The notes beneath the pieces are model-generated. The model had not been told where the DNA came from, ran no database searches, and saw only the letters and a program-made list of their open reading frames with translations. Shown one piece after another: positions 21,856 through 64,000 of a DNA stretch of 64,000 nucleotides. The translations under genes were made by a program, and so were the position numbers. The stretch is from Cyanidioschyzon merolae (Eukaryota): NCBI GenBank assembly GCA_000091205.1, contig AP006492.2, one strand, 5' to 3'. How positions within the stretch are numbered: the stretch's first letter is position 1; every line of letters begins with the position of its first letter.

Positions 21856-22908
21856 TTACGACTTGTCGATCCGAACGCCGTTCGAAATTCGAACGACGCC
21901 AGCAGTACAGTAGTGGCGAGAAGCCCGACCTAGACTAGTCGTCATTAACCAATGTGCAGACGTCCTCGTCTTTTTCGACCGGCCCCCGCTACTGCTCCCT
22001 TTTTTCTCATATAGTTCCACTTTGAGAGATTGTCCAGCAAAGTTCGCGCTTGTCCAATCTGGTGGTCTCTCCTCCAGCACCGCACATCTCCTTATATTGA
22101 TGGCGGCGTTAGAGTCACGATTCACAAACTCCATCCGTTTCTTGCCATCACTGGTTGCACTTACTAATGCAAAGAGTCCACGAACTTTCGCCCTCCTTTC
22201 CATTTGCTCTTCTGTTAGCAGTCCGTACTTTGCTATATCCTCAGGGCTCCTCTGGCACTTTTCCATCTCGACTCTCTGAAGTGTACAACCCAGCTCGTGG
22301 TGTGTGTAGGACGTTCGGAACTCATCTACAGGTATCGTGACGAAACGCCTTGTGCACTCCTTGTACAACCTTGTCGTTGGAGCTGGTGTACACCCTTTTT
22401 GAATCTTCCATCGCCCTGCTGCGTACGCTACTACGAGCCTTTGAGTCTTGTCCTCTTTGAGGGCACTCAACTGATTGAAAAAGTTGGCGAACGCCTGCTG
22501 CTTACCACAATACAGATTCATTCGCAAACGAGCCCATCGGGGCTTTGTATACTCCTCCCAGAGTGCATCCCAATGGGCAACGCGAACTTCCATAAATTTC
22601 CGAAAAGCTTCAAAGTCCGCACCTCGGCTCGTCATCTCGCCCAAAGCTTCCAGGTGATCCTTCATTCCTGAATTCCAAGTCTCGATTTTCTTCCTCGCAT
22701 TCATTATACCGGATTCTCGATAGTATCTTGCTCTCGAGAACCTCATCAGACGCATGTCTTTCTGACGTAAGTTACCATCAGCGCCATCTTCTGCACGCTT
22801 CGGTGCTGCGATGGTTGTGATATTCGTATTCCCAGGGTCCGCGCCACCGACAAAGTCGTTATCTTGCACTTTCTCGGTCACAGGACCCGCCCTCCTTCTT
22901 TTCTTCAT
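21856..22908 (-). CDS. Fanzor/TnpB-like RuvC endonuclease, C-terminal catalytic half (RuvC-I, RuvC-II, Zn-ribbon remnant, RuvC-III)
   Basis: RuvC-I: [27 protein letters not shown] (GxDxG...DG). Bridge block: [29 protein letters not shown], where TnpB has LeYKa..G..v..Vdp.yTSq.C. RuvC-III: [14 protein letters not shown], where TnpB has DaDvNAAiNI. Zn-ribbon reduced to H/C remnants. Canonical RuvC-II Glu position reads VVAYAAG. Confidence 0.55.
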
Positions 22909-23075
22909 GCTTCACCGCGTCAATGGCAAGGTAGTCATCCTGCACCACCGGCGTCGCAGGATCCGCCTCCTTCTCATCTTCATCCTTCGCCGCGCCGACG
23001 ATAAGGTCGTTATCCTCCACCTCCTGCATCACAGAATCCTCCTCTTTGTTTTCTGCATCCCTCGTGACGGGCGCG
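22850..23075. repeat. In-frame 66-bp (22-codon) tandem repeat inside Fanzor-like ORF, about 3 units
   Basis: Units encode ..[24 protein letters not shown] / [25 protein letters not shown] / [21 protein letters not shown]. The last unit runs into the RuvC-I motif. Copy 2 has 4-5 units (33545-33835). Confidence 0.75.
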
Positions 23076-24584
23076 GCCGAGGGCGGATCTGGACGATCTT
23101 TCTTCAACCGCCGATAGAGTACACACGTGGCTACTCCATCGGTTTCGATCAACCCAGCAAATACCTTTTGTTTGCTGACTTTGAGACGTTTGAAGTCGAA
23201 GATACTCTTCCAGTACGTCTCCCGGTTTTCACCGATGAAGTCCTCCCTGCTCACATCGAACTCCGGACAGATCTCCCTCATGATGCCGTAAAGGACGCCT
23301 GAATCGATAGTCACGAAATGTGACTTGATATTGCACATTGGAACGCCGTTGAAGCGCTTACCCATTAGGAAAGCCTTCCGTCTCTCCCACTCTTGATTTG
23401 TCTCTTCACTCAGCTTCATCTCCGCTTCGCGTTCGAGCTCTCGGTCCAGAAACACGAAATATCACAGGATGAGGCGGTAGTATCTTTCCTTATCTTTTTT
23501 CAACTCTGATCAATTTTCTGCCAAATTCGCCAGCCCCAGGACTGCACGATACTCTTGGATAGCCGCACGGATTACAGAAGCTTCATTTGCGCTCCTGCGT
23601 GACGCCTTCTTATCGACAAACTCGATCTCAACTTCATACTTGCGATCTTTCATGATGCCATTGATAATCGCCCATTTTCCGTTGCGAGCGATGCCCGGGT
23701 AGAGTGTACCCACCGCGCGTATCATAAAACGTTCGAGGTTCACTGTCAAATGGTTCTTCAGACTCGTGGTGTACTTTTTCGCTCCGTATGCCTAAATATC
23801 CGAGGCACCCCTGTATCGATTACCTTCGAAGCGGAATTCCACCAAGTTTTCGTGGAGGGCGTGCACTAGCACATTTTCCTTCAGCGCTTCCGCTGTGCCA
23901 AGCATCAGGTGACGAATAAACGTCTTGTCGAAAAACTCGTCAGGAATCTCGACTGTTTCCGTGTGCGTCACGTCGCGATACATCTCCCTCACCAAATGCA
24001 TCAGTACTGACGACGCCTTGACAATACTCTTGGAGTACGAGTCGACATGGTTTCTGATAGCGTCTCGCAACTTTTCGTTGCACGGATCCTTGATATGTTT
24101 AAGAAGGAAGGTTTTCACCACCATCTCGTCGTAAAGTCGTCTTTGTTGCAGCCTTCAACGTAGGGCCTCCCCTTTCGGTTCTTCTTCTCTCCCTTTTCTT
24201 CTGGACTCGGCACTGTTTTTTGTTTTTTTTTCTGGCAGCCGGCGACCCTGGGCCTCCAGGATCGTGGACTTGCTTTTTCATAGCTTTCCTTTTTTAGTTT
24301 TTTTTTGAAAAACAACGCTCTGTGAACGCTTCTGTTATATACTGCGAAAAAAAACTTGAACACACTTGTTTGAGGTTTGAAAGAAAAATGAACTAAAAAA
24401 CTGTACTCTGCTAAGACCTTAACGGAAATCCAATTTTTCCAGTAGAACAACACGCTACTGATCAGGATCGCGTTTCCCTTCAACGGCGGCATTCGCATCG
24501 TGTCAGTAGACTGGCCGATCTCCGAGGTATCTCGGCGTCGATCTGGTCGTGGTGAGCAAAACGCCGGGTACAAAAACACCGATA

Positions 24585-27500
24585 ACAAAACAAACTAGTC
24601 GCAAACTATTTATTAAAGAACAACTATCTTAAAGACCCACACACCACGCCCGCCTTAGAGGTCTAGTTTTTCCGGAGAAGCTCTGAAAGTGGGTTAACGC
24701 GGGGTGCTTGGGCGACGGCGAAGGAAGCCCACGCCAGGGACCTTGACCGCAACGAACGGAGGGGCGGCGGCAGTAGCACCAGAAAATGTTGACGAAAATC
24801 CTGATTAGTCATCCGCCCCTCCCGAATCAACGCTGCAGGTTCGGGCGCAAATCTTGGATCGATCCTCGGACTCGGGCTCCGTTTTACCTCCTACCTTGGC
24901 TACCTACCTCAACTTTGGGAACAATTTCGGCGGATACTTTGGAAGACGGCTGGCAGTATGTTCACTGTCGAAGCTGGAATAAGCGGCTTGCCCGCCTATG
25001 TGTTTGGGGAGCGGATACGTAGCCGCTGAAAGGGTGGTTTGCAGACTGTTCCCAATTGTTGAGGGGAGGTTAAAGCGTCGGGCAAGATAAAGGTCGCATT
25101 CGAATCGACCTTGACTAGCGTACATCTGATTCTACGCTAGCGCTGCGGCAGACGCTCAATGAACGACTGGAATGCAGGAGGCGCTGGTGGCATGTGCGAT
25201 CACACACGCCATGGAGGGTGCATCTCAATCGACAACGTATCTCTCGAGTACCGCAGCGTTAATCCTATTCCCTTATGCGCTACGACTCGATAGGTTTCGC
25301 ATCATGGAATATTTGTGGGATCGCCTCGGTATTGAACTACGAGATATCGAATTACCAGTACAGTAATGAAGAACTGATACAAGTCGAGGACTGTACAAAA
25401 GGCAAAAGAGACCCAACCAGACACGGAGAAGGAGACACAGAAACCTCATGATCCACCTAGATGCAAAATAACCAGAGAATGTAGCTCAGGAAAGAACCCG
25501 ATGAAGAAGAAAACCAACAAGAGAAAAACAGAAGAATAGGAAGAAGAACTCCCGAACGAGTCCACAGGCGGGGGCTCCAGCGAACCCATCACAAGTCGTC
25601 CCCGAAAGAGCACCCCAGCAGGAACTCAAGAAAGCCGTCGCCAAACCGAGTCACCTACTCACAGCGCTGAAGATCCGAAAAGCCGTGCATACAAATCTTT
25701 AGACCAATTGGCACGCGAGTTTGTAGATGGGAATCAGAAGTTGCCGGAGAGCTGGGACTGCTTGCACCAGAACGCAACAGTTGCAAACCTCAGTGCCTGA
25801 AACGACGTACCAATACCCGGATTGACGAGCGCCACCGACTCTATCAGATCGTCAACCACACCGCCATACGCGCCAACGCTGGAGACAAGGAAGCGAAGGC
25901 AGTCCTAACGGCGCTACAGGCACAACATGAAGAAGCTATCAAAAGAAAGAAGAAACTTTCCAGAGAAGACAAACGAGAGGATCGAAACCGCAAAATCGCC
26001 TCCCTAGCGAAATCTATGCTAGAGAGCACCAACGAAGATGAGACCTGGCGCTACATTCGATCGAGACTGGACCCACCAAAAAAGTGCTTGGGGCTCACAC
26101 CAATCGTTTATGAGGAAGTGCTGAGGACGGAGCGTGCCTCAGTGAATGAGGCCTGGACGGACCACGGCACAGAGCTGCATGAAGACGCAACTGGGAACTG
26201 CCAAGACAGAATCTATTGGCACCAGTATGCCGCAGAACTACCGCGCCTCGAACCGGTACCGGAATGGAACGACCCAATCTTCTGGCCTGAATCTGTTCGG
26301 ACCGTGCTATGCTCAAGCAACCGCAAAACACCTGGCATCGACGGTATCGCGGCGGAGTGGATGAAACTGGTGATCCCAAAAGACGGGACAAGAGGGACAC
26401 TATCGATACCAGATGAACCTGACACAAGCTTAGGCAAACGCCTTGTGGAGCTCATCCAACGCATGTTCGAAGAGGCGTACATCCCGGATTTATGGAGGAC
26501 TGCCGAGGTCGTACCGATCCTCAAAAAGGACTCCGACGTACACAAACACAGACATGAACAACTACCGGACTATTCGCCTCATCCCGTCAATCATGAAGCT
26601 ACTTTGCGCCATTCCCACGAACCGGACTCAGAGAGGCCTCGTGGAACGCAAGTTCTTCGCCCCAGAACAGGCTGGATTCCGGAGCCACGAGGAGTGCATG
26701 AGCCATGCCCTGACCCTAACTGAAGTGGTGCAACGTCGCTCCATTAGCGGCCAACAACCAGCTTACGTATGCTTCACCGACTTTCAAAAGGCCTTTGACA
26801 CGGTCCCGCACGAGGCTCCATTTCTCAAGATGGAACGAGCCCAAGTCTCCGGAAAGTGCTTAGCGTTCTTCCGTGCGCTCTATGCAGACTCATGGATGCG
26901 CATCCGACTGGGCGACCGCTCAAGAACCCCTTCCAGAAGAATCCGCCGTGGACTGCGGCAGGGCGAGCGCGCATCCCCGCTCCTTTTCAACATCTTCATC
27001 AACGATCTGCTGAACAACTGCAGACAATACGGGCTTGAGGTGCCGTGGATAGACTGTGGAGATACCCGATGAGGAGCTCTCACATAGGAACCGCCTCGCA
27101 GGCCGTCTAGTTGCGGACGATGTCGTGCTGTTGGCACCCGCCCCGGAAACGCTTGCGGGTAGCATGGAACAAGTCAGCGCCCGGGCCGATCGCTGGGAGA
27201 TGAGCATAGGAGCATCGAAGTGCGGCGTCATGGTCATCCATGGAGACTCGCAGAGCATTCGCAATCGCTCGTGGCGGTTGCAGAATCAGGAAATTCCGAT
27301 CGTGGAAAAATATCGCTACCCGGGGGTCTGTCTAACGCCGACGCTCGACGAAGAGGCACACGTCGACGAGATGATCGCCAAGATGCATAGACGTACAGCG
27401 ATCGCACGTCCATTCCCATCCGACCCCTCTATCTGCATAGCAATTCGTACCAGGGCACGAAGGATGTGTATCATCCAGCCTGCGACCTGGGGTGCTGAGT

Positions 27501-28878
27501 GGTGCGGCATGAACCACACAAATGCCTCACGTCTGCAGATAGCCGCCAACATGGCAATGCGACTCGTTGTTGCTGTTGGATGCTCAATGTAGAGCAGAGC
27601 AACCACCGCGCTGGCACTCGGACTTGAACTCCAAATAGCCTCGACAGAGGCGACAGCAGCAGGTTGCCGGGCACGCATATGGGGCAAAGGGCCAACTATG
27701 AACACCTGGTTCGATCGGATATCCATGCAGACCCCAACGCACCGCAAGAACACTTGGATGAAATCGACGCAGATTTGGCTGAAGCGCCTCTTAGGGGACA
27801 ACACGCTCCCCAATCGTTCCCCAGGAATGTAGAAGACTTCAGACGCCTCAAGCGAACGGTCCAAACAACAATTTGGGAACGTAGACACGGAACCAGTCGC
27901 GCCAGTAACGCCGGCTTAACTCTATACCGGAACTACAACCTAGCATACACATGCAAGTACTGGTGGGAGGCGCTGGAATTCCCGGGACTTGCTCGAGGTA
28001 CCCAGTGGCTCGCCAAAATCCGCGTTGATGGCTTCTGGCTAGCGGCACCGGCTCTAAACCATATAGGGACACTGGAATCGCACTGGGAGTCACACTGTCC
28101 CTGCTATCGAGACGAAATCCCCGAGACGCTGACATATTTAGGCTTACAGTGCCCGCGCTGGAAGCAGGAGCGCAGCGAGCTCCTTGAAGGACAGCAGCAG
28201 CTGGGCATCACCATGATAGCCGAGGGCCGGACATTCACTTTGAGTGCAGCACTGGCAACTGATGGTCCGCTAACAGATCCTCAGTGCTCATTAGTGGCCA
28301 ACAAACTCACATGCTACGTTCTAGGCATGAGGTCCAGCGTATCGGATGCGCACACGGGCCCAGTGCGCTTTCTGCGCCCACCTTTTGTGGTGGGTGTCAA
28401 GCACAAATCCGCATTTCCAACCGACGACAACGCATTCCATGCATGATCACGAAGGAGAGAGGCGGCTCCCACGATATATCCTAACAGTCAAGTTTCTCCA
28501 GCGTGTCGTGCAGCGAAGGCAAGCCTGCATCCGCAGACTGTCCGAGCACAAACTGACGACGAGACTCGATTCTACGTCGGGTGAAGCACACCTCGAGCCG
28601 ACGCCCTTTGTGGTATAGAAAAGCCGTTCTGTCTCCATGATGCATCTGTACCAAAGGTAAAGACGCTATTGCGGATAATTAGGACAGGTTCTGGGCACAC
28701 GATAGGACGTATGAGATGACCAGAATATCTGAGACGAAGTATAGGTAATGGAACTTGGGAGTAGCCTGTTTGATGGATACTTCACGGCGCACTGAAAAAA
28801 AGAGAAAAAAGTAAGAAAAGAAAAATGCGCGTGATCGGAGAACGCTGGCCTAAGTAAACGTTTTGTCAACGAAAAAAC
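24585..28878 (+). mobile_element. Non-LTR (LINE-like) retrotransposon, copy A, degenerate (frameshifted)
   Basis: RT motifs across three frame segments (26016-26723, 26443-27072, 27056-27592): NYRTIRLIPSIMKLL, FRSHEECMSHAL, QGERASPLLFNIFINDL, LVADDVVLLA (FADD-box variant), CGVMVIHG. C-terminal Cys/His domain HCPCYRDEIPETLTYLGLQCPRW at 27664-28446. A-rich 3' tail region. No apurinic-endonuclease domain recognisable. Confidence 0.8.
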
Positions 28879-29818: not shown

Positions 29819-31394
29819 ACGCGCATTCTGCAGCACGGGTCCTCTTGAGGGTGTCTTTCGTCGGTGATATGAGGCGGGGTCATACGAGCCGCTCTATGGC
29901 CGGCACGATCGCACCGCTTTTGCTGGAGTGGTGGCAGCTCTGCTGAAAAGGAGCACTGACGCCCCAATGATCAGTGAAGATCTAAAGCGCTTCAGAGTTC
30001 TAGCCTGGTGGTGCACAAGTTAGCATCGCCACGGAAAATCAAGGTGCATTTGGCCGTGAAATCCCCTGTGCATATCAGAGATACCCGTCGGATGCGCGAA
30101 TGCCAGGGGTTTCTCGCCGAACGCCCCGGGGGATCGTTTCGCAAGACCTGAGGCATCCTTGAACGCGCAACGTTTGATCTTTATAAGCAGCGAGAACCCG
30201 GCTATTGGACCGGTGAACAAATACATATGTTGCCGCTGGGCAACAGCATCGAATATGCCACCCCTGGTGCCCAGCTCGTGCATGGTGCTTCACCAATGCT
30301 GTCAGTTGCGCGTATGACATCAACATGCAATCGTGGATCATTTTGTAACCCAAGTGCCTTAATCTGTCCGCCCGTACGCGAGTATCATCACACAGCATCG
30401 GCCAACAAGCGCCCAGCAACGAGCGCAGAGCAAGGCCCGGACAAGTCAGCGTCGGTCTGCGCTTATGGGGGTGCCAGGGCACGAATACGGAACTTGCCGC
30501 GTCCGCAATTTGGAAACTCGTCGCGCACTTTGCGAGAAACATGGCGCGGCCGTCGGTTTCGAAAACGTACGAGACTTGGTACGTTCATGCTTGAAAGTCG
30601 TCAGGCAGTTATTGAGCGTGCAACCAAAGAGAACCGCTGACTGTCATACCTATTACCTTTCTTGTCTGTGTTCTTGACCACCCCGGAGGCTTGCATTGCG
30701 CAAAGCGGTGCTGTTCCTTGGTGAAATTCCATCCAGCGCGCGAAACTTAACATTCACTGGGTCCGTCTACTCGTAGCACAGATAAGGTGTCTGAATGAAC
30801 GACGCGACAGTAGTATCTGAAAGCTCTTTCCAGAGATTTTTGCACCACTAACCAGAGGTGTGACAAGTCGACTGGGCAGGAGACCTCTATCTTGTAGCAT
30901 GCATGGCTCAAGAGGATTGCGCAGGATATGAGTTGCAACGTAGGATCGAACGGGAACGAGCGGGACCGAGTGAGAACGAGCGGTTTCGTAAACTTACGCC
31001 AGCGCGTCGCAGAGATCATGCGCCCCCTGCGGCGTATGTGTTCTTGTTGCGCAGACGGAAAGCACGAGCGACGAACCGCTTCAAACCAAAATGCAACGCA
31101 TCACGCGGTCCAGCATCCACAGTCCCAAGGACGCCATGCTTTCATCGTACTCCAGCGTTCTGAAGTTCACCGCTGTCGATATGAATGAAAATTCGCTGCC
31201 GGGCGACTCGCGTTTCGATGCATAGCGCGAAACGTCTGCGTCTCTTACATTCAGCGTTGGGCTCCAGCTGCCGTCCTTTCGCATCACGCATGTACGAAGC
31301 ACGTCACGAGTCGCAAACTCCCCGACGCACTCGAGATGCCTGCTCCCCGCATGCATATCACTTCGCTCAGCGTAGTGTGCGCTCCAGAGATGCC

Positions 31395-32504
31395 TCATTT
31401 CGGAATTGGGCGCAAAAAATATTCGCAGACGTCATGGCTCATCGGTAGCAACTCCGCCACGAAAAGGCGCTGTATCCAGTACAGGCACAATGCGCCTCGA
31501 TGATCTTCTACCATTTCATTCGGGAAGAGCGGCGAGCGCTGGTCGGTCTCATGCTCCGCACGCTGACCCCTGAGTCCGCATGCCTCAAAGAACATTGCGT
31601 ACGAATCGGTTGGGAAAAGGAGATCATCGTCGTGAGCGGGAATTTTCAAAAAATAGAGCATCGTCGACTCACCAGTGTCTTTGCCGCCCTGCATCCATAA
31701 ATATTCCACTTCCGTTGATGTCAACGAGGTAGTGCACCAGCACGCGTACGTCGGTCGCCAGTCGACCTTCCGACGAACAAGACCGAGAAACACTGGATCA
31801 GATACTCTGCAAGTCGGCAGATTCAACTCGTCGCATAGTTCGCTCTTCACCGCGTCTAGAAATTCCTGCCAGACCCCCTGAGTCACGTCGATGGAGGTTG
31901 CAACATTCGATGGCTCTGGATGCCCGCCCGGAAGGACCCAGCGTCCGCTGGCTTCCCCCAAGCGACTGCTACGGCGCTGGCACACAATCTTGCCATCTGC
32001 TGTCTCCAGGATGGCCGCGTTGCCAATAGCGTTAGCGAGATGACACCATGGAGCGCCTCGCTCTGCTGAGCGGAAGGCTTTCAGTGCATTCGGTGCAAGC
32101 GTCGTTCCCTGGTGCGCACGATAATCAGTCGCTCCGACCTCAAGGTGAAATTTTCGATGGACAACGCCCTGCTCGTGGCGACACGAAACCCTAATTGCGT
32201 TGAGACGAAATTTGCTTGCGTTCCAGAGATTGTCGCCCAGGACTTTTTGCTGTTCAACCCAACGGGCTTCGATCGAGGCCTCCACGTGCTCCGAAGGATG
32301 CGGGCGGCGCGCAAAATGATCGCCTTCCATATCAACCTCAAGCACCAGATCGACGCTAGCCCCGGCAACAGCACGAGAAAGACACGACCTTTGCAGTCCG
32401 GGGGTACAGAACACGAGCAGCTCATACCGACCCTCTTTCTCCGCTCTGCGAACCAAGTCAACTACCCCCGGCTCCATACAGGCAAGGCTCTGAGCGCTCC
32501 ACAA
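31395..32504 (-). CDS. Hypothetical protein with possible divergent Nudix-like motif
   Basis: 369-aa ORF. WVLPGGHPEP...KSELCDELNL loosely resembles a Nudix box with an insertion. Weak. Confidence 0.25.
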   Translation of the reverse strand: MWSAQSLACMEPGVVDLVRRAEKEGRYELLVFCTPGLQRSCLSRAVAGASVDLVLEVDMEGDHFARRPHPSEHVEASIEARWVEQQKVLGDNLWNASKFRLNAIRVSCRHEQGVVHRKFHLEVGATDYRAHQGTTLAPNALKAFRSAERGAPWCHLANAIGNAAILETADGKIVCQRRSSRLGEASGRWVLPGGHPEPSNVATSIDVTQGVWQEFLDAVKSELCDELNLPTCRVSDPVFLGLVRRKVDWRPTYACWCTTSLTSTEVEYLWMQGGKDTGESTMLYFLKIPAHDDDLLFPTDSYAMFFEACGLRGQRAEHETDQRSPLFPNEMVEDHRGALCLYWIQRLFVAELLPMSHDVCEYFLRPIPK

Positions 32505-32575
32505 AGCGTCCCATACCTCCGATGCTCGGGTGCTTCAAGTGCACGCACACCGCCACCGCCACCGCCTTTTACACT

Positions 32576-33896
32576 CGAACGACGCCAGCGGTGTACAGTA
32601 TTGGCGAGAAGCCCGCCTTGGACAAGAAGTTTTCAACTGCGGTGTAGACGCCTCCCAGCCCTTTTGCATCGGCCACCTACTACTGCTTCCAATCTTTTCT
32701 CATATAATTCCACTTTGAGAGGTTGTCCAACAAAGTTCTCCCGTGTCTACTCTGGAGGTCTTTTCTCCAGCACCGCACATCTCCTTATATTGATTGCGGC
32801 ATTAAAGTCTCGGTTCACAAACTCCATACGTTTCTTGCAATTGATTGTACTTCCTAATGCTAGTAGCCCTCGCACTTTCGCCCTCCTTTCCATTTGCTCG
32901 TCTGTCAGCGGTCCGTACTTTGCGATTTCCTCAGGGCTCCTCTGGCACTTTTCCATCTCGACCCTCTGGAGTGTACAGCCCAGTTCATGGTGTGTATAGG
33001 ACGTTCGGAACTCGTCTACATGTATCGTGACGAAACGCCTTGCACACTCCTTATATGTTTTTGCCGTTGGAGCTGGCGTGGTCCCTTTTTGGGTCTTCCA
33101 GTGTCCCGCTCCGTACGCTACTACTAGCCTCTGATTTCCATCCTCCTTCAGGTCACTCAACTGATTGAAGAAAATCGCGAACGCCCGCTGCTTACCAAAA
33201 TACAAATTCATTCGCAAACGAGCCCACCGGGGCTTTGTATACCGCCCCCCACAGCGCATCCTAATGTGCCATGCGAAATTCCATGAATTTCCGAAAAGCT
33301 TCAAAGTCGGCTCCTCGGCTCGTCAGCTCGCTCAAAGCTTCAAGGTGATCTTTCATTCCTGAATTCCATTTCTCGGTTTTCTTCCTCGCATTCATGATTC
33401 CCGATTCCCGATTGTATCTCGCTGTCGAGAACCTCAAAAGACGCATGTCTTTCTGACGCAAGTTGCCGTCGGTACCATCCTCCGCGAGCTTGGGCACAAC
33501 GATGGTTACGATATATGTGTTTCCGGAGTCCGCGCCAACGACAAAGTCGTTCACATGCACTTTCTGTAGGGCAGGATCCGCCTTCTTCTCATCTTCATGC
33601 TTCGCCGCGTCAACGACAAACTCGTTATCCTGCACCTTCTGTGTCGCCGGATCCGCCTCCTTCTCATCTTTATGCATCGCCGCGCCAACGATAAAGCCGT
33701 TATCCTCCACCTTCTGCGTCACAGGACCCGCCTCCTTCTCATCTTTATGCATCGCCGCGCCAACGAATAGGTCGTTATCCTCTGCTTCCTGCGTCGCAGG
33801 ATCCGCCTCCTTCTCATATTCATGCTTCGTCGAGGGCGCAGCAGAGGGCGGGACTGGACGATCTTTCTTCAACCGCCGATAGTGTACACACAAGGC
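32576..33896 (-). mobile_element. TnpB/Fanzor-like element, copy 2: 5'-truncated, frameshifted, premature stop (pseudogene)
   Basis: ORFs 33261-33893 and 32747-33304 share about 88% amino-acid identity with copy 1 (VGADSGNTYIVTIV, RLYKEC-like block, [14 protein letters not shown]). Trp->stop after RPPE. Abuts the LINE copy at 33897. Confidence 0.55.
33545..33835. repeat. 66-bp in-frame tandem repeat inside Fanzor-like copy 2, 4-5 units
   Basis: Repeated [29 protein letters not shown] units in the translation. Confidence 0.75.
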
Positions 33897-36800
33897 TACT
33901 CCATCGGTTTCCTGGTTCCGTGTCTACGTTTCCGTATTGCTGTTTGGACCGTTCGCTTGAGGCGGCGGGAGCCTTGTACATTCCTGGGGAACGATTGGGG
34001 AGCGTGTTGTCCCCTAAGAGGCGCTTCAGCCAAATCTGCGTCGATTTCATCCAAGTGTTCTTGCGGTGCGTTGGGGTCTGCATGGATATCCGATCGAACC
34101 AGGTGTTCATAGTTGGCCCTTTGCCCCATATGCGTGCCCGGCAACCTGCTGCTGTCGCTTCTGTCGAGGCTATTTGGAGTTCAAGTCCGAGTGCCAGCGC
34201 GGTGGTTGCTCTGCTCTACATTGAGCATCCAACAGCAACAACGAGTCACATTGCCATGTTGGCGGCTGTCTGCAGACGTGAGGCATTTGTGTGGTTCATG
34301 CCGCACCACTCAGCACCACAGGTCGCAGGCTGGATGATACACATCCTTAGTGCCCTGGTACGAATTGCTATGCAGATAGAGGGGTCGGATGGGAATGGAC
34401 GTGCGATCGCTGTACGTCTATGCATCTTGGCGATCATCTCGTCGACGTGTGCCTCTTCGTCGATCGTCGGCGTTAGACAGACCCCCGGGTAGCGATATTT
34501 TTCCACGATCGGAATTTCCTGGTTCTGCAACCGCCACGAGCGATTGCGAATGCTCTGCGAGTCTCCATGGATGACCATGGCGCCGCACTTCGATGCTCCT
34601 ATGCTCATCTCCCAGCGATCGGCCCAGTCGCTGACTTGTTCCATGCTACCCGCAAGCGTTTCCGGGGCGGGTGCCAACAGCACGACATCGTCCGCAACGA
34701 GACAGCCTGCGAGGCGGTTCCTACGTGAGGGCTCCTCATCGGGCATCTCCACAGTCTATCCACGGCACCTCAAGCCCGTATTGTCTGCAGTTGTTCAGCA
34801 GATCGTTGATGAAGATGTTGAAAAGGAGCGGGGATGCGCGCTCGCCCTGCCGCAGTCCACGGCGGATTCTTCTGGAAGGGGTTCTTGAGCGGTCGCCCAG
34901 TCGGATGCGCATCCATGAGTCTGCATAGAGCGCACGGAAGAATGCTAAGCACTTTCCGGAGACTTGGGCTCGTTCCATCTTCAGAAATGGAGCCTCGTGC
35001 GGGACCGTGTCAAAGGCCTCTTGGAAGTCGATGAAGCATACGTAAGCTGGTTGTTGGCCGCTAATGGAGCGACGTTGCACCCATCAATGAGGGTCAGGGC
35101 ATGGCTCATGCACTCCTCGTGGCTCCGGAATCCAGCCTGTTCTGGGGCGAAGAACTTGCGTTCCACGAGGCCTCTCTGAGTCCGGTTCGTGGGAATGGCG
35201 CAAAGTAGCTTCATGATTGACGGGATGAGGCGAATAGTCCGGTAGTTGTTCATGTCTGTGTTTGTGTACGTCGGAGTCCTTTTTGAGGATCGGTACGACC
35301 TCGGCAGTCCTCCATACATCCGGGATGTACGCCTCTTCGAACATGCGTTGGATGAGCTCCACAAGGCGTTTGCCTAAGCTTGTGTCAGGTTCATCTGGTA
35401 TCGATAGTGTCCCTCTTGTCCCGTCTTTTGGGATCACCAGTTTCATCCACTCCGCCGCGATACCGTCGATGCCAGGTGTTTTGCGGTTGCTTGAGCATAG
35501 CACGGTCCGAACAGATTCAGGCCAGAAGATTGGGTCGTTCCATTCCGGTACCGGTTCGAGGCGCGGTAGTTCTGCGGCATATTGGTGCCAATAGATTCTG
35601 TCTTGGCAGTGCCCAGTTGCGTCTTCATGCAGCTCTGTGCCGTGGTCCGTCCAGGCCTCATTCACTGAGGCACGCTCCGTCCTCAGCGCTTCCTCATAAA
35701 CGATTGGTGTGAGCCCCAGGCACTTTTTTGGTGGGTCCAGTCTCGATCGAATGTAGCGCCAGGTCTCATCTTCGTTGGTGCTCTCTAGCATAGATTTCGC
35801 TAGGGAGGCGATTTTGCGGTTTCGATCCTCTCGTTTGTCTTCTCTGGAAAGTTTCTTCTTTCTTTTGATAGCTTCTTCATGTTGCGCCTGTAGCGCCGTT
35901 AGGACTGCCTTCGCTTCCTTGTCTCCTGCGTTGGCGCGTATGGCGGTGTGGTTGACGATCTGATAGAGTCGGTGATGCTCGTCAATCCGGGTATTGGTAC
36001 GTCGTTTCAGGCACTGAGGTTTGCAACTGTTGCGTTCTGGTGCAAGCAGTCCCAGCTCTCCGGCAATCTTCTGATTCCCATCTACAAACTCTCGTGCCAA
36101 TTGGTCTAAAGATTTGTATGCACAACTTTTCGGATCTTCAGCGCTGTGAGTAGGTGACTCGGTTTGGCGACGGCTTTCTTGAGTTCCTGCTGGGGTGCTC
36201 TTTCGGGGACGACTTGTGATGGGCTCGCTGGAGCCCCCGCCTGTGGGCTCGTTCGGGAGTTCTTCTTCCTATTCTTCTGTTTTTCTCTTGTTGGTTTTCT
36301 TCTTCATCGGGTTCTTTCCTGAGCTACATTCTCTGGTTACTTTGCATCTAGGCGGATCATGAGGTTTCTGTGTCTCCTTCTCCGTGTCTGGTTGGGTCTC
36401 TTTTGCCTTTTGTACAGTCCTCGACTTGTATCAGTTCTTCATTACTGTACTGGTAATTCGATATCTCGTAGTTCAATACCGAGGCGATCCCACAAATATT
36501 CCATGATGCGAAACCTATCGAGTCGTAGCGCATAAGGGAATAGGAGTAACGCTGCGGTACTCGAGAGATACGTTGTCGATTGAGATGCACCCTCCACGGG
36601 GTGTTTGAGAGCACATGCCACCAGCGCCTCCTGCATTCCAGTCGTTCACTGAGTGTCTGCCGCAGCGCTAGCGTAGAATCAGATGTACATTAGTCAAGGT
36701 CGATTCGAATGCGACCTTTATCTTGCCCGACGCTTTAACCTCCCCTCAACAATTGGGAACAGTCTGCAAACCACCCTTTCAGCGGCTACGTATCCGCTCC

Positions 36801-37226
36801 CCAAACACATAGGCGGGCAAGCCGCTTATTCCAGCTTCGACCGCAAACATACTGCCAGCCGTCTTCAAAAGTCTCCGCCGAGACTATTTCCAAAGTTGAG
36901 GTAGGTAGCCAAGGTAGGAGGTAAAACGGAGCCCGAGTTCAAGGATGGATCCAAGATTTGCGCCCGAACCTGCAGCGTTGATTCGGGAGGGGCGGATGAC
37001 TAATCAGGATTTTCGTCAACATTTTCTGGTGCTGCTGCCGCCGCCCCTCCGTTCGTTGCGGTCAAGGTCCCTGGCGTGGGCTTCCTTCGCCGTCGCCCAA
37101 GCACCCCGCGTTAACCCACTTTCAGAGCTTCTCCGGAAAAACTAGACCTCTAAGGCGGGCGTGGTGTGTGGGTCTTTAAGATAGTTGTTCTTTAATAAAT
37201 AGTTTGCGACTAGTTTGTTTTGTCTT
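33897..37226 (-). mobile_element. Non-LTR retrotransposon, copy B (3'-truncated), same family and same frameshifts as copy A
   Basis: ORFs 35084-36100, 34981-35364, 34736-35080 and 34246-34752 mirror the copy A segments at about 95% identity. The 5' end matches copy A at 24585. Lacks the last about 1 kb of the element. Confidence 0.8.
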
Positions 37227-37496
37227 TTTTTATTCTCCTCGCGCCCGTTGCATCACTAGCCACATTATTCGCGGCGTTTCTCCGTCCTATTCGAGTAGTT
37301 ATTGTTACTTTGTGCACATTGTTTAAAGCGCGTTCGTTTATTGAAAAACTCAAAACAGTATTCAATCGTGTGTACCTCGACTTGAAAATGACCTGCCGTG
37401 CCAGCCGCTGCATGCACGCGCTGTTAATCGTTCAATTCTTGCACATAAAAGCGAATTTGTTGACGGGGTGTAGGTTCATTGTGCTTGGGGTGAACG

Positions 37497-38786
37497 ATGC
37501 GTTCCTTGCCTCCCAGTGGCTCTAGGTGCTCAGAGGACGCAATGACATGGGTGCAAATAGTAGGAACACGAGCGGACCAAGTGCACTTCGCGCCAAGACC
37601 CGAACGGTGTGGTCGGGGGGCTCCCGTCTCCTTCACGAGACCCCTGCTTTCGAGGCGTCGCCAACAGGCGTTGATGGTGCGCTGGTGTCCAGCACGCCTG
37701 TGCGCCGGAAATAGCAACGGTAATCAGCCGAAAAAGACGCGAGCAAAGCAAACATTCTCGCCACCACCGAGTACCTTTTACCAGGCCCTAAACCAAGCAG
37801 TGGAAGCAGTTTTAGCAGCAGTGGAGGCTGGAGAGCGTCTACTGGAGATTGACTTCCCTCCATTGCCCGCAAGTGTGCTGAATTCGACCAGATCTTCATC
37901 GGACGACGTTATTGACGCCAATACGCGACTGGCGTTTGACTTTGCGAAAATGCTTCAGGAAACAACGCGAGAGAGACGCAATGGCCGCTCGACTTATCAG
38001 CGAGTCGCGCTCATCTATCCCGACATGATCGAGCGTAACCGAGCCTTTGCGGGGGATGCTGCCCCCAAGAAACCAGGCTCGGGGTATGCAAATCGCTTCG
38101 GTGATACAGTCGGCACTGCGGACAGCCGCATCCGGCTTGCTGCTCTGCGCGCGGGCTATGAGGCTGGTAACTTTATCCAGCGAATCCTGCAAGCCAATAT
38201 TCGCGACGGTGATGCTGGCGATCGTATCGAACCCATTTTGGATGATGACGATATTTTTATCGTTCTTGGCGCCTCGGCGCAGGAGCTCGTGGACGTGGAA
38301 AAGTTCGTGCAACGTCTCGAAGAAACGGACAAAACGAGAGGCGACCAGCGACCCGTCATTCTATTCAATATGCAGCTGGATACATCACGTGGTGATCTGG
38401 GCTTGCCTGCGTTTCCGTCTCGGATGCTCCATCACCGCTTTCTATGTCGATTCTTGCCCGTCTACTACTTGCGAACGCGCTCGTACTCGAGGTCGATTTC
38501 GCGACCTCCATTTGTTGTCAACTATCAAGGCGCAATATTTAGGGTATATCCAGAGCCATACCAGGTGCTTCTCGAGACCCAAGAGAATCGTTATCGGCAG
38601 GTTGCACAGTATGCCACACGGCCGAGACTCACAGAGGCCAAGGATGCCCTAACGAAGGCCGTATTTCCACAACAGAACGAGAAAGATGGTGGGTCATTTG
38701 GTTTCTTGCGGCGAGGGATGCAGACAGCGACCTGGTGGGAGCGTGCCTCCGACGACAGCTCTGTGTCGAACAAGTGGCGTCAGTAG
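37497..38786 (+). CDS. Conserved hypothetical protein (possibly plastid-type DUF1995-like)
   Basis: 429-aa ORF with non-repetitive composition and a basic S/R-rich N-terminus. Family assignment is from memory only and weak. Confidence 0.25.
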   Translation: MRSLPPSGSRCSEDAMTWVQIVGTRADQVHFAPRPERCGRGAPVSFTRPLLSRRRQQALMVRWCPARLCAGNSNGNQPKKTRAKQTFSPPPSTFYQALNQAVEAVLAAVEAGERLLEIDFPPLPASVLNSTRSSSDDVIDANTRLAFDFAKMLQETTRERRNGRSTYQRVALIYPDMIERNRAFAGDAAPKKPGSGYANRFGDTVGTADSRIRLAALRAGYEAGNFIQRILQANIRDGDAGDRIEPILDDDDIFIVLGASAQELVDVEKFVQRLEETDKTRGDQRPVILFNMQLDTSRGDLGLPAFPSRMLHHRFLCRFLPVYYLRTRSYSRSISRPPFVVNYQGAIFRVYPEPYQVLLETQENRYRQVAQYATRPRLTEAKDALTKAVFPQQNEKDGGSFGFLRRGMQTATWWERASDDSSVSNKWRQ

Positions 38787-41402
38787 CGTCTCCGTGGCAC
38801 TGGCCAGAAGCGCCGTTCGGCCCAACACTCATTTCAGCTTCGTCCAAGGTAAAGCTGGGGTTAGGGGTACCGGTTCGAATGAGTGTAACTTGTTCCAGCT
38901 CACAGACTCCGTGGAGTTGTCTTTAGCTATCGTTTGCGACCGTCCGCTTCGCCGGAGTGTGCCTTTGACGGACCTGGAGCTCTTCTGGTATCTCTTCTTG
39001 AACCAGCGGTCGAAGTCGTTTCGGGAGACGGTCTGCTACGTCAGCAAAGAAAGGGCCGCGACTTTTAGCTCGAAGAAAGCGAATCCTCCGCGCCTCCGCT
39101 GCGCGTCGCCAACGTGGCGTACGGTTATTCAGTATCGGAAACGGCGGTCGGTGGATCCGCATTCCGATGACCCCGAGCACCCCTAAGAGCATGGTGCGTA
39201 TAACGTAAAGTTGCAAGTCCGCGTGATGATGTAATTGTCCCTGTGAAAATGCGTCCACCATGGGACCGTCGAGCAGCGCGGAAAAACGCTGCCCAGGGAC
39301 TCGGCGCCTTCTGTGCACCAGCTGCTGACCCCTCGCCACACGCGCAGACAAGCCCTCGGCCGCAGCGTCGCGGCGACAAAACCTTCCACAAGTGCCAGCA
39401 GCTTTGTAAGCAGTTGAAAAGAGACCCGCGAACGCCAGTGTTTGGCTGGTTTTTCCGAAAAGCATCCGTGCGTCAACTCCTCTAGTCCAAAGTTTGCAAG
39501 CTGTACGCACACAGTATAAAGTTCCTTAGAACGCAGCACCAGCATGAGCGCTTGCCGTAGGCGCCGCCAGTTTGAGATCCGATCACCACCGTCGCGCAAC
39601 GCCGTGGCACAGGCACTCGCGGAGGCGTCTTGTTCTTATGCAGAGGCAGTGCTGCGGCAACGGTGCATCCTGGGTACCGGTACGTACCTGCGGTAGGCTT
39701 GGCATCTGGTGGTTCGCTCGACTGTGCAATCCGTTATGCCAACGCGAATACTAGTCCGATGTGACTGGAACCCGAACGTGCTTAGATCGGAGCGGGAGTG
39801 TCTCCACGGCGTCCAGGTCAACTGCGCATCCCGGGGATTCTTGTAAGCGTTGTCGATTGTGCATCATAGGGAAAGCCGGCGCTGGCATAGACGCAAGTCG
39901 TCTCGCAGCTCGCTGGATCCAAAGTAGAATCCGCACAGACGGACAAGACCAGGGCTGATAGAAAATTGTCAAATACGGTGAAGCGCTGCAGCGATCTCGT
40001 TTTTGCTGATCGATATACTCAGCAGTATCAGCTCATAGAACACGCTTATCGCGCATGAATCTCCAGGGGGAATGATTCCAGGTACAAGTTTCAACCGTGC
40101 TCTAGATTTGCTGCATTGTGTTTGCCGTACAACCTTTGTGCTTTGCTCCAGCGAGTAACCGATCCCCTCTGTCCTGACCGCTGATTGTTTACTTCGATAG
40201 CATTCAGCGTTTCAGCACAACGCTCACAATGACTGTTAAACGATTCCCTCGAACGTCCGCTTAACGTAAAGCCACCGAACGCTCTGGAGGCACGAGACAT
40301 TCCCGGATGTCGACTGCAGATGCTGCCGTCGACACAAACATATCAGACAGGACTTTTCCTCAGGAACGGAAACTCGATTGGCCCGGTGAATCTCCAGATG
40401 CCCAGCGCACCGCGTACGTTGCACGGTCTCAGCGTGGCGTTGCAGTGCCTCCAGCCATGGGGGCGGCTTCCTACAACGCTCGCACCCTTGGGGTTTCCCG
40501 GTCAGTCTTGACGATCTTGCACCGTAAAAAAATCCAAGGTCACATTCGATGATCGTCAGGTCTGCCTGCACACAATTTGTTTTGATCGACATAACATTTC
40601 AGTGAACCAGGGATCCTCGATTTCTTAATCGAAAGAAAGTACACACGAGCTCGGGATCCTCGAGTGCGCGAAGGATCTCGGCATCCAGTAGAGCGTGGCA
40701 TAGTGTTCGCGCTGAAAACGGGAAAGGTTTTCGGCATTTTCGAAAGGTTACCTTCTAGGCGGACGCTCCCGCGAACCGCTCGAGTCTACCAGGCTAGTGA
40801 ATCATCTACCTCTCCAATGGCAGGTGCTTTAGTGATATCTGAGCAGCAACTCGTCCGCTACGCAGTTCACTCTGGGACAAAGAGCGGGTAGATTGCGCCT
40901 GGACGTCGCTCTGGCCGCTGTAGACTCCCTGCATATTGCTTCGCGATGCGGCACGCAGTACGTCTCTCCGTACAGTTAGCAGGCTCCCAGAATGATTTTG
41001 TACTCCGACCCCATGTCGGGTGATCCACGCGTCGAGCCGGCTACCCCAGTGGTATGGCAGAGCCGTACTGTTTCCGTGAGGCATCGGCTCCAGCAGTATA
41101 AGCGCCAAGGCGGGCGCTCAAAGCAAGCAATCGCCGCGCGATTGAAGGTACAAAACGGCCAGCACCTCCGAGAGAAAATATGGGATATAGAGCTGGAAGT
41201 TAGGGCACAACATAAAGAGCGATTTCTCGTCTGCCAATAGCTATCCCGCAATCTGGAGTCCATAATCAATGAAAATGCTTTGTCACTGCGGCCCGCGGCG
41301 GCCGTGCGTTACGCCGCGCAGTACCTCGGGAATTCAATTTCCGACCGACAAACGAACTGGCTGCTGCTTCTCAGTATTTTCTGTCGCCGCTGAGACGCTT
41401 CC

Positions 41403-49136: not shown

Positions 49137-49137
49137 A

Positions 49138-61961: not shown

Positions 61962-64000
61962 GCGGGTTTTTTCCATTGACAAAACGTTTACTTAGGCCAG
62001 CGTTCTCCGATTACGCGCATTTTTCTTTTCTTACTCTTTTTTTGTGTTTTTTTCAGAGCGAGTTGGGGTATCCATCAACCCCCTACCTCCATGTTACATT
62101 ACCTATACTTCGTCTCGGATATTCTGGTCGTTTCATACATCCTATCGTGTGTGCCTAGTACCTGCCGTTCCGTATCCTCCTTTGTGCCTGAACCGCTGGA
62201 GCAGATAGGTCATAGAGCTAGAACAGCTTTTCTATACCACAAAGGGCGTCGGCTCGAGGTGTGCTTCACCCGACGTAGAATCGGGTCTCGTCGTCAGTTT
62301 GTGCTCGGACAGTCTGCGGATGCAGGCTTGTCTTCGCTGCACGACACGCTGGAGAAACTTGGCTGTTAGGATATATCGTGGGAGCCGCCTCTCTCCTTCG
62401 TGATCATGCATGGAATGCGTTGTCGCCGGTTGGAAATGCGGATTTGTGCTTGACGCTCACCACAGTGGATAGGCGCAGAAAGCATACTAAACCCGTGTGC
62501 GCGTCCGATTCGCTAGACCTTCCGCTTGGAAGGTAGCACGTGAGTCTGTTGGCCACTCATGAGCGCTGAGGCTCGGTTAGCGGACCATCAGTTGCCAGTG
62601 CTGCAGTCAAAGTGAGTGTCCGGCCTTCGGCTATCATGGTGATGCCCAGCTGCTGCTGTCCTTCAAGGAGCTCGCTGCGCTCCTGCTTCCAGCGCGGGCA
62701 CTGTAAGCCTAAATATGTCAGCGTCTCGGGGGTCTCGTTTCCGCAGCAGGAACAGTGTGACTCCCAGTGCGATTCCAGTGTCCCTATATGGTTTAGAGCC
62801 GGTGCCGCTAGCCAGAAGCCACCAACGCGGATTTTGGCGAGCCACTGGGTACCTCGAGCAAGTCCTGGGAATTCCAGCGCCTCCCACCAGTACTTGCATG
62901 TGTATGCTAGGTTGTAGTTCCGGTATAGAGTCAAGCCGGCGTTACGGGCCCGACTGGTTCCGTGTCTACGTTCCCATATTGTTGTTTGGACCGTTCGCTT
63001 GAGGCAGCGGGAGCCTTGTACATTCCTGGGGAACGATTGGGGAGCGTGTTGTCTCCTAAGAGGCGCTTCAGCCAAATCTGCGTCGATTTCATCCAAGTGT
63101 TCTTGCGGTGCGTTGGGGTCTGCATGGATATCCGATCGAACCAGGTGTTCATAGTTGGCCCTTTGCCCCATATGCGTGCCCGGCAACCTGCTGCTGTCGC
63201 TTCTGTCGAGGCTATTTGGAGTTCAAGTCCGAGTGCCAGCGCGGTGGTTGCTCTGCTCTACATTGAGCATCCAACAGCAACAACGAGTCGCATTGCCATG
63301 TTGGCGGCTATCTGCAGACGTGAGGCATTTGTGTGGTTCATGCCGCACCACTCAACACCCCAGGTCGCAGGCTGGGTGATACACATCCTTAGTGCCCTCG
63401 TACGAATTGCTATGCGGATAGAGGGGTCGGATGGGAATGGACGTGCGATCGCTGTACGTCTATGCATCTTGGCGATTATCTCGTCGACGTGTGCCTTTTC
63501 GTCGAGCGTCGGCGTGAGACAGACCCTCCAGGTAGCGATATTTTTCCACGATCGGAATTTCCTGATTCTGCAACCGCCACGAGCGATTGCGAATGCGCTG
63601 CGAGTCTCCATGGATGAGCATGACGCCGCACTTCGATACTCCTATGCTCATCTCCGAGCGATCGGCCCGGGCGCTGACTTGTTCCATGCTACCCGCAAGC
63701 GTTTCCGGGGCGGGTGCCAACAGCACGGCTTCGTCCGCAACTAGACGGCCTGCGAGGCGGTTCCTATGTGAGGGCTCCTCACCGGGCATCTCCACAGTCT
63801 ATCCACGGCACCTCAAGCCCGTATTGTCTGCAGTTGTTAAGCAGATCGTTGATGAAGATGTTGAAAAGGAGCGGGGATGCGGGGTCGCCCTGCCGCAGTC
63901 CACGGCGGATTCTTCTGGAAGGGGTTCTTGAGCGGTCGCCCAGTCGGATGCGCATCCACGAGTCTGCATAGAGCGCACGGAAGAACGCCAAGCACTTTCC
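61962..64000 (-). mobile_element. Non-LTR retrotransposon, copy C (3' part; continues beyond window end)
   Basis: ORFs 62557-63186 (C-terminal Cys/His domain), 63258-63611 and 63460-63795 (RT, LVADEAVLLA box) match copies A and B. The A-rich 3' tail is at 61990-62060. Confidence 0.75.

Follow-up and report, generated by a model that had tools for sequence, protein, structure and literature searches.

How does a LINE that has lost its 3' end come to lie directly against the interior of a Fanzor element that has lost its 5' end? The question is raised by a junction in a 64,000-nucleotide stretch of Cyanidioschyzon merolae DNA, which as a whole is called the window here. A preliminary description of the locus attributed the junction to a deletion or to ectopic recombination, on the grounds that target-primed reverse transcription does not produce LINE copies that are truncated at the 3' end. 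To decide how the junction arose, the exact breakpoint, the two transposon families, independent assemblies and the surrounding host locus must all be considered.

Anatomy of the junction

Self-BLAST of the window and pairwise alignments place the switch between the two elements exactly at 33911|33912, with Fanzor1 copy 2 on the left and LINE copy B on the right, both on the minus strand (Table 1). The same comparisons confirm the anatomy first proposed, a 3'-truncated LINE joined to a 5'-truncated Fanzor, although the junction had been put at about 33897, 14 bp from its true position. Positions 32575-33911 match 21889-23146 in the same orientation at 80-82% identity, while 33912-37223 are the reverse complement of 24585-27896 with 97.8% identity over 3313 bp; all of these alignments have E = 0, so chance matching is of no concern. 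The LINE is fused directly to the Fanzor interior, at a point equivalent to 23146 in copy 1 (previously estimated as about 23140). At copy 1 the arrangement is indeed the opposite one, with the Fanzor on the minus strand and LINE A on the plus strand, head to head and 83 bp apart. As the relative orientation of the elements differs, a single composite that was duplicated does not account for the two loci.

Table 1. Coordinates of transposon copies, host genes and the breakpoint in the window
Feature	Position	Strand	Description
Fanzor1 copy 1	21877..24504	-	Full length, both ends present; pseudogene (one frameshift, several in-frame stops)
LINE copy A	24585..28877	+	4293 bp, full length; head to head with Fanzor copy 1
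Host gene, 369-aa ORF	31395..32504	-	Conserved in Cyanidiophyceae; left of the transposon block; start about 40-70 bp from the Fanzor right end
Fanzor1 copy 2	32548..33911	-	5'-truncated pseudogene; residues 357-752 of P0001 plus the right end of the element
75-bp tandem repeat in Fanzor copy 2	33530..33829		4 copies; codes for an acidic linker, ETDGV strand to RuvC-I
Breakpoint	33911..33912		Blunt join of Fanzor-internal ...CATCGGTTTC to LINE-internal CTGGTTCCG... (three-way comparison with parental sequences)
LINE copy B	33912..37223	-	3312 bp; 5' end same as in copy A; degenerate
Host gene, DUF1995/LPA3-like	37497..38786	+	On the right side of the block, at a distance of 273 bp from the 5' end of LINE B
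LINE copy C	61968..64000	-	3' part; runs off the window end; spans the LINE B truncation point

The search for microhomology that had been recommended was carried out as a three-way comparison with the parental sequences and gave 0 bp, with 0 filler bases. A search for a local repeat or hairpin at 33911|33912 found none, and there is no fusion ORF across the join. A join without microhomology disfavours homology-driven ectopic recombination and favours blunt end joining. Of the two mechanisms originally offered, the deletion would be the most economical.

The LINE family

LINE B has nearly all of its frameshifts in common with LINE A, and shared frameshifts are seen in all LINE copies. Compared with copies A and C, exactly 981 bp are absent from LINE B (about 1 kb had been estimated), corresponding to 27897-28877 of LINE A. 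The missing part holds the Cys-rich motif, the 3' UTR and the A6-7 tail, in agreement with the loss of the Cys/His domain and A-rich tail reported earlier. Had the LINE family simply ended at this point, as the preliminary description allowed, there would be no truncation to explain. LINE A, LINE C and a LINE fragment at metagenome locus L001 all extend 981 bp beyond the stop of LINE B, however, and end at these three loci in an identical GTCAAYGRAAAAAA tail, so that 33912 is not a natural end of the family. The Cys-rich motif (HCPC...x16...C, at about 28090-28150 in LINE A) is conserved in the same three copies, with the usual His being a Tyr in all of them.

RVT_1 is recognised in the LINE copies with 62-77 bits, above the cut-off of 29.6, and the closest solved relatives of the reverse transcriptase (RT) are R2 and LINE-1 ORF2 proteins (E 6e-12 to 1e-9). 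Judged by its RT type, the element is classified as a non-LTR retrotransposon (LINE). It resembles L1 and R2 in this RT domain (76.9 bits to RVT_1), in the C-terminal Cys-rich motif, in the short A tail and in the occurrence of a 5'-truncated copy, which lies in L001. It differs in that no endonuclease domain, APE or restriction-like, was detected by Pfam in any frame of 24585-26100 or the LINE B equivalent, where only a 'SWNICGI' remnant is found, and in the frameshifts common to its copies. A further difference is the 3' truncation of copy B, which is not a product of ordinary target-primed reverse transcription.

The 5' flank of LINE B (...GAGAATAAAAAAAG) is A-rich, which is what ordinary target-primed insertion of a full copy would lead one to expect, and two metagenome contigs, L004 and L005, bear out the 5' junction. 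Candidate target-site duplications of the LINEs, including those of LINE A and the L001 copy, score no better than shuffled sequence; with no LINE copy carrying a demonstrable duplication, ordinary insertion of LINE B is unproven.

The Fanzor1 family

Fanzor1 copy 2 represents the C-terminal 53% of Fanzor1, from the ETDGV strand through the RuvC motifs. Compared with copy 1 it lacks 1358 bp (23147-24504), which comprise the left end and the N-terminal 356 codons. It keeps the motifs GADSG, VDEFRTS and NRDFNAAINI, where copy 1 has GADPG, VDEFRTS and the third RuvC motif, and it carries one frameshift near residue 577 and one stop codon, both of which are also present in contig L012. The 75-bp repeat found four times in copy 2 is present in 2.5 copies in copy 1 (22878-23064). 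With residues 1-356 missing from copy 2, and no intact ORF for a functional nuclease in either copy, both are pseudogenes. An intact 752-aa relative, P0001, is 74% identical to copy 1.

The family is assigned to Fanzor1, the eukaryotic TnpB-like RNA-guided nucleases, by homology to characterised Fanzor1 proteins. A profile of 69 family members with P0001 as first sequence (A4) was searched against solved structures and matched the Fanzor1 proteins of Parasitella parasitica (9cf0, E 2.1e-21), Spizellomyces punctatus (8gkh, E 1.7e-13) and Guillardia theta (9cer, E 6.6e-7); the same search with a single sequence or a shallow profile gave no match. The split RuvC triad (D...E...D) is present: in A4, D484 and E656 do not vary and D725 varies hardly at all. 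When the family was scanned with Pfam and NCBIfam, the outcome was either negative or below threshold: PF07282 (TnpB/Cas12f-type) scored 18.5-20.1 bits, below the cut-off of 26.3, in the copy 2 ORF and three of ten distant relatives, in each case at the expected C-terminal position, and a PF07282 search of P0001 and the A1 members found no match. The structure prediction for P0001 had a pLDDT of 32, and an exact-protein look-up of two window ORFs returned no record.

The known C. merolae Fanzor1 family is CMe-1A, which is about 3 kb long, has no terminal inverted repeats and is present in many old copies of about 80% identity, some of them intact (Bao and Jurka 2013, PMC3627910). Likened by description, the copies studied here agree with it in their Cyanidiophyceae red-alga host, size, lack of terminal inverted repeats, mutual identity of 80-84% and the existence of the intact 752-aa relative, and the family profile matches solved Fanzor1 proteins. 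Copy 2 differs from CMe-1A in being a truncated pseudogene fused to a LINE. Exact ends can now be given for a CMe-1A-type element, the boundaries of which were previously undetermined.

Four independent loci of the family (copy 1, L001, L002/L003 and L018) are full length and begin at the same left end; loss of the 5' part is thus not the rule in this family. At the other end, the BLAST homology of copy 2 to copy 1 begins at 32575, and homology of the right end and flank with other loci reaches to about 32548. This right end is canonical, reading ...RAWAGGCR and then GTGGYGGTG as in L001 and L002, which points to ordinary DNA insertion of a Fanzor element at this site, and it bears a hairpin (CGTTCGAA-TT-TCGAACG) next to the canonical flank. 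An apparent 'AAAAG' duplication match was discarded as part of the conserved RAWAGGCR end. A candidate for a structured guide RNA (omega RNA) was sought in the 3' part up to the right end: six Fanzor copies have a long helix (GCAGTAG...CTACTGT) in common in their last 100 bp or so, in which only 3 of 34 pairs show a compensatory change (covariation term +1.39 over the six copies); Rfam gave no match for this region, and Rfam and tRNA scans of 20000-39000 were empty.

Independent assemblies

Metagenome contigs were scanned with a 22-mer across the join, which produced five matches. The exact 22-mer is present in L012 and L010; the other three matches (L011, L013 and L014) are due to chance and come from an unrelated organism. 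L012, an independent assembly from a slightly different strain, extends from the 3' end of LINE A across 3.7 kb of unique genes and Fanzor copy 2 to a point 387 bp inside LINE B. It is collinear with the window across the junction, at 99.25% identity over Fanzor copy 2 and 99.4% over unique DNA. Repeats flank the junction on both sides, which could suggest that two of them were misjoined or collapsed, but such an artefact is close to refuted: L012 crosses from the LINE A 3' end into LINE B, the same join recurs in L010, and copy 2, only 82% identical to copy 1, is effectively unique sequence. The junction is not the misassembly that the preliminary description had warned of.

Some observations may merit a genome-wide look in their own right. 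L010 repeats the LINE/Fanzor junction in a different sequence context, orthologous contigs agree at 88-92% in their LINE parts and at more than 99% in the flanks, and LINEs adjoin Fanzor left ends at two unrelated loci.

The host locus

In Cyanidiococcus yangmingshanensis (L015) and in GCA_041825655.1 (L016) the same two host genes are adjacent, transposon-free and 266-292 bp apart; apart from these two, no LINE-free allele of the 369-aa/DUF1995 locus was found. Both are distant relatives, so diverged that alignment with the window at the nucleotide level is impossible. For a neighbouring gene, identity to the best named relatives is only 63-66%. Between the two host genes of the window, DNA other than transposon sequence amounts to about 316 bp in total, compared with 266-292 bp in the relatives, so that only transposon sequence is missing. 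This block sits in an otherwise preserved divergent-promoter spacer of about 290 bp, and the loss is therefore internal to the transposon block.

Origin of the junction

The most likely origin, with a somewhat better than even chance, is the insertion of two elements into the spacer followed by a single deletion of at least 2339 bp. Both elements would have entered the divergent-promoter spacer of about 300 bp between the 369-aa gene and the DUF1995 gene. A CMe-1A-type Fanzor1 of about 2.6 kb would have inserted with its right end beside the 369-aa gene, and a non-LTR retrotransposon of 4.3 kb, oriented like the Fanzor, on the side of the Fanzor left end, which would have placed the two in tandem. 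One deletion after these insertions would then have taken away the final 981 bp of the LINE, the initial 1358 bp of the Fanzor and whatever lay between them. The ends would have been joined bluntly in the style of non-homologous end joining, leaving two pseudogene remnants with no fusion reading frame. A deletion is the most economical solution. It fits the synteny, in which host spacer DNA is conserved around the block, and it is supported by the passage of L012 across the junction and by the continuation of the LINE family in A, C and L001.

Some results count against the deletion. No progenitor allele with a complete LINE and a complete Fanzor in tandem was found, and the only two resolved LINE-Fanzor neighbourhoods (copy 1 and L001) are head to head rather than tandem. 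In addition, the same junction with an unrelated flank in L010 is not predicted by a one-off local deletion, unless L010 arose by recombination or was pieced together by the assembler.

Deletions by non-homologous end joining within nested transposon clusters are an established type of event. The present locus has the same loss of facing ends, the same blunt join and the same intact flanking host DNA, with no essential difference, and may be filed under this category.

The exclusion of reverse transcription as a source of 3'-truncated LINEs in the preliminary description was too strong, as endonuclease-independent L1 insertions are documented that lack target-site duplications, delete target DNA and may carry template-switched RNAs (Sen et al. 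2007, PMC1920257). In such a process the 3' truncation would date from the insertion itself, either by capture of LINE RNA or cDNA at a double-strand break in the Fanzor (inserted independently of an endonuclease or primed internally, target DNA being lost) or by a template switch from a Fanzor transcript to LINE RNA. The locus resembles these insertions in a LINE without its 3' end, the lack of a target-site duplication, a foreign join and missing DNA; the 0 bp of microhomology and the lack of filler are compatible, and the LINE copies here have no recognisable endonuclease domain. An origin of this type is nevertheless unlikely. The Fanzor part ends without an A tail at the DNA right end of full-length copies, a DNA-transposon terminus and not an RNA 3' end, the whole block has no flanking duplication, and the 5' end of LINE B is complete and lies at an A-rich site of the kind typical for ordinary insertions. 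No pre-insertion allele was found that would place the loss at insertion. Had the LINE been captured at a break, Fanzor sequence would be expected on its far side; host spacer lies there, so a deletion of more than 1.3 kb would still be needed. A template-switch chimeric retrocopy was rejected, with no A tail at the Fanzor end and unit flanks that have nothing in common.

It is similarly improbable that the chimera was formed elsewhere and arrived ready-made, or was copied from here to another locus, whether by read-through retrotransposition from the LINE promoter or by exchange (ectopic recombination or gene conversion) among scattered LINE and Fanzor copies. L010 is what speaks for it: it has the identical junction and all four 75-bp repeats, its overall identity is 88%, and beyond the right end its sequence has no relation to the window and no coding sequence for the 369-aa protein. 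Its identity to copy 2 falls from 90-96% near the junction to 70-76% near the right end, a mosaic as recombination between Fanzor copies would give, and LINE identities of 88-92% against flanks of more than 99% suggest active conversion among repeats. L010 is a single metagenome contig of 1980 bp, Ga0209012_1025008, however, and could be a mosaic made by the assembler. The unit in the window has neither a flanking target-site duplication nor an A tail, and a protein search with the junction-spanning ORF of L010 found no match covering both halves. Arrival as a chimera would moreover account for the spread of the junction and not for its first origin.

A primary 5'-truncated insertion of copy 2, one-ended and rolling-circle-like from the right end, which deleted the 3' kilobase of a LINE B already present beside it, is quite improbable. 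It has a precedent in the Chlamydomonas Fanzor1 families of the Helitron2 type, whose copies are reported to lack the 5' part often while keeping an intact 3' end (Bao and Jurka 2013, PMC3627910), and the hairpin and canonical flank of the copy 2 right end would suit it, but all four other resolved loci of the family are full length and a target deletion of about 1 kb would still be required.

Two simpler rearrangements were dismissed. A single inversion of a head-to-head pair like that at copy 1 would make this junction, but the N-terminal half of the Fanzor and the 3' kilobase of the LINE would then be expected on the right side of 37223; these pieces are absent, and the DNA there is host spacer without Fanzor similarity. 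Insertion of the Fanzor into the LINE fails as the remaining LINE is absent on the other side of the Fanzor.

Implications

On balance, the junction is probably a fixed, genuine rearrangement scar in a small nest of transposons in a red alga of the Cyanidiophyceae. That the LINE-5'/Fanzor-3' chimera is a propagating composite and not a one-off scar is quite improbable. Such a composite would let a LINE promoter and RT region carry the RuvC half and the guide-RNA-encoding right end of Fanzor1, spread via retrotransposition or repeat-mediated recombination and explain the junction in L010.

The junction is real yet an ordinary scar of DNA loss in a transposon cluster, of a rearrangement type that is already known. 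For annotation, the Fanzor and LINE remnants should be recorded as two pseudogenic fragments and not as a single gene. The locus is of little general significance; it shows the trimming of transposon remnants in a red alga whose genome is very compact and has its insertions restricted to short promoter spacers.

Position and structure of the junction

The LINE/Fanzor junction is real and precisely located. In a self-comparison of the window, 21889-23146, within the full-length Fanzor pseudogene (copy 1), aligned with 32575-33911, within the 5'-truncated remnant (copy 2), in the same orientation at 80-82% identity, and 24585-27896 (LINE A) matched the reverse complement of 33912-37223 (LINE B) with 97.8% identity over 3313 bp, while a third LINE-family copy at 61968-64000 (LINE C) paired with 28877-26851. 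Pairwise alignments place the change of homology from Fanzor to LINE exactly at 33911/33912. The preliminary description had put the breakpoint at about 33897 and its copy 1 equivalent at about 23140, which were off by 14 and 6 bases, respectively; all the other features it described are present. Comparison with the parental sequences revealed no microhomology (0 shared bases on either side) and no inserted bases at the breakpoint, and neither a hairpin nor a local repeat was found at the join. The LINE reading frame terminates 5 codons beyond the join and the Fanzor frame has a stop 5 codons ahead of it, so that no fusion protein is encoded.

A 22-mer spanning the join had five matches in public metagenome contigs, three of which were chance matches in an unrelated organism. 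The contig L012 (5829 bp), an independent assembly from a slightly different strain, runs collinearly with 28457-34298 of the window and so crosses the junction. The 5' junction of LINE B is confirmed by two further metagenome contigs, L004 and L005. Misassembly, for which a check by long reads had been proposed, is thereby effectively excluded by separately assembled DNA. Compared with the window, the LINE parts of orthologous metagenome contigs reach only 88-95% identity, against more than 99% for the adjoining unique DNA, and L004 and L005 differ by 11.6% within the LINE. This LINE divergence above that of the flanks stems either from assembler mosaics or from conversion between LINE copies.

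Features of the elements, the window and the metagenome contigs
Feature	Location	Identity or copies
GTGGYGGTG-like right-end flanks of Fanzor	window 32548-32575; L001 ~8426-8450; L002 ~9633-9676; L019 ~1740-1760	
Predicted Fanzor terminal helix	32575-32700 and 21877-22010 in the window; also in L001, L002, L018, L019	
75-bp tandem repeat, copy 1	22878-23064	2.5 copies
75-bp tandem repeat, copy 2	33530-33829	4 copies
L012, unique DNA		99.4% to window
L012, Fanzor copy 2		99.25% to window
L012, first 387 bp of LINE B		88.6% to window
LINE parts compared (orthologues of LINE B and LINE A)	L012 1-387 and 5408-5829; L004 1-810; L005 1-1034	
27-bp unit past LINE A 3' end	28927-29145	8 copies, 98%
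Old fragments related to LINE 3' untranslated region (28568-28757)	40720-41284; 56724-57283; 57006-57212	69-77%
Direct segmental duplication, 3.7 kb	12312-15984; 45916-49540	98.2%
Cytochrome P450 ORFs	13145-14821 (-); 46743-48413 (-)	
Inverted repeat, 1.8 kb	9696-11506; 16137-17947	98.9%
EF-hand gene	11741-12310	

Identity and ends of the two elements

The left element lies on the minus strand and encodes motifs including NRDxNAAxNI. Neither Pfam nor NCBIfam nor single-sequence comparison with solved structures named its family, the only matches being sub-threshold ones to a Cas12f1-like TNB domain. The stitched translation of copy 1 matched 32 protein clusters, all from JGI metagenomes, among them P0001, an intact protein of 752 aa with 74% identity. 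An exhaustive profile search yielded about 1400 representative clusters, mostly of 600-700-aa proteins, and a profile built from 69 of them matched Fanzor1 proteins of known structure from Parasitella (E 2e-21), Spizellomyces (E 2e-13) and Guillardia (E 7e-7), which assigns the left element, on sequence grounds, to Fanzor1. A family described as CMe-1A, of about 3 kb and about 150 copies that are about 80% identical to their consensus, lacks inverted repeats and has no defined termini (PMC3627910); this description agrees with the 80-84% identity among the Fanzor copies seen here.

Full-length Fanzor elements occur at four independent loci (copy 1, L001, L002/L003 and L018), which have in common both the left end (window 24504 for copy 1) and the right end, ...RAWAGGCR; some copies have a hairpin ahead of the right end. 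Copy 2 retains this right end, but its first codon corresponds to E357 of the 752-aa protein; it lacks 1358 bp, in addition to carrying a frameshift and a stop. GTGGYGGTG-like DNA lies just beyond the right end at three to four of seven loci, which suggests a target preference or a few extra bases of the element. The last ~100 bp, overlapping the end of the ORF, could form a conserved long helix (GCAGTAG...CTACTGT) at the position where a guide RNA scaffold is expected; compensatory change is seen in only 3 of its 34 pairs. Within the ORF, an acidic linker is encoded by a 75-bp tandem repeat of variable copy number, higher in some metagenome relatives.

The right element encodes a non-LTR reverse transcriptase (RVT_1, 76.9 bits) whose nearest solved relatives are the R2 and LINE-1 ORF2 proteins. 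Besides a C-terminal Cys-rich motif, it has a short A tail. Within the LINE copies, 24585-26100 and 35700-37223 showed no recognisable endonuclease domain, 'SWNICGI', near 25290-25330, being the sole remnant. LINE A and LINE B differ by just two 1-bp indels and have almost all frameshifts in common, which implies that they were copied from an already defective sequence or were homogenised. LINE B shares the 5' end of LINE A and terminates at the equivalent of 27896. LINE A, LINE C and a fragment in L001 extend 981 bp further to a common GTCAAYGRAAAAAA end at three different sites; the natural end of the family is thus not at the junction, and LINE B is 3'-truncated, as first proposed. Directly past the 3' end of LINE A lies a tandem array of a 27-bp unit, and the old fragments elsewhere in the window could represent tails of older LINEs or, alternatively, a short derivative element.

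The host locus

In Cyanidiococcus yangmingshanensis and GCA_041825655.1 the gene order is PGM, ClpS, a 357-359-aa gene and DUF1995, with transposon-free spacers of ~440-640 bp between PGM and ClpS and of 266-292 bp between the 357-359-aa gene and DUF1995. The window carries the same genes; its DUF1995 product shares 99% identity with a JGI metagenome protein and 63-66% with the proteins of these two relatives, which places the host among the red algae of the Cyanidiophyceae. Here, the PGM-ClpS spacer holds copy 1 and LINE A, and the spacer between the 369-aa gene and DUF1995 holds copy 2 and LINE B. The non-transposon DNA left in the latter (~43 bp + 273 bp) approximates the spacer length of the relatives. 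No Fanzor similarity is present in the 273 bp on the right side of LINE B. Together, these observations place the missing DNA inside the transposon block.

LINE and Fanzor stand head to head at two unrelated loci (window 24504-24585; L001 5667-5717), the LINE 5' junction being ~12-83 bp from the Fanzor left end and the LINE full-length in the window and 5'-truncated in L001; no LINE adjoins Fanzor in L002 or L018. Each 3.7-kb duplicate contains a cytochrome P450 ORF, and the 1.8-kb inverted repeat flanks both the EF-hand gene and P450 copy 1. In both relatives, the EF-hand and P450 genes are located downstream of DUF1995, so this part of the window is rearranged relative to them.

Origin of the junction

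A Fanzor element would have inserted with a canonical right-end junction, and a complete LINE would have integrated close by, oriented the same way; the LINE 5' flank GAGAATAAAAAAAG is A-rich, the type of site such elements use. A single deletion of at least 2339 bp would then have taken the facing ends of both, which would have been rejoined without homology. We give this sequence of events slightly better than an even chance. Of the deletion or ectopic recombination initially envisaged, deletion is retained as the best available, albeit unproven, explanation, while the blunt join indicates end joining rather than homologous ectopic recombination.

The chimera may have moved or been copied after it formed. 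In the contig L010 (1980 bp), which is 88% identical overall, the identical junction recurs together with the same four 75-bp repeats. The identity of L010 to copy 2 is 90-96% close to the junction and 70-76% close to the right end; the flank of L010 shows no relation to the window, and the 369-aa protein is not encoded there. The junction region thus exists in a second, diverged form, and L010 may be a paralogous copy from recombination between repeats, or an assembler mosaic. Such movement does not explain the first origin of the junction, and a self-propagating composite is very improbable. A 144-aa ATG ORF in L010 (1323-1757, minus strand) crosses the junction and continues in the Fanzor frame. 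Its LINE part is not read in the frame of the reverse transcriptase, and no protein spanning both halves was found in the databases, so this ORF has probably arisen by chance.

An origin through reverse transcription, by capture of LINE cDNA at a break or by template switching, has precedents in L1 (PMC1920257), but the Fanzor part stops at the DNA right end without an A tail, no duplication flanks the LINE/Fanzor unit, and a large deletion would be needed even so. Primary insertion of copy 2 in 5'-truncated form, as known for Helitron2-type Fanzor1 families of Chlamydomonas (PMC3627910), is unsupported by the four full-length loci. The junction is an unremarkable outcome of transposon decay within a compact genome.
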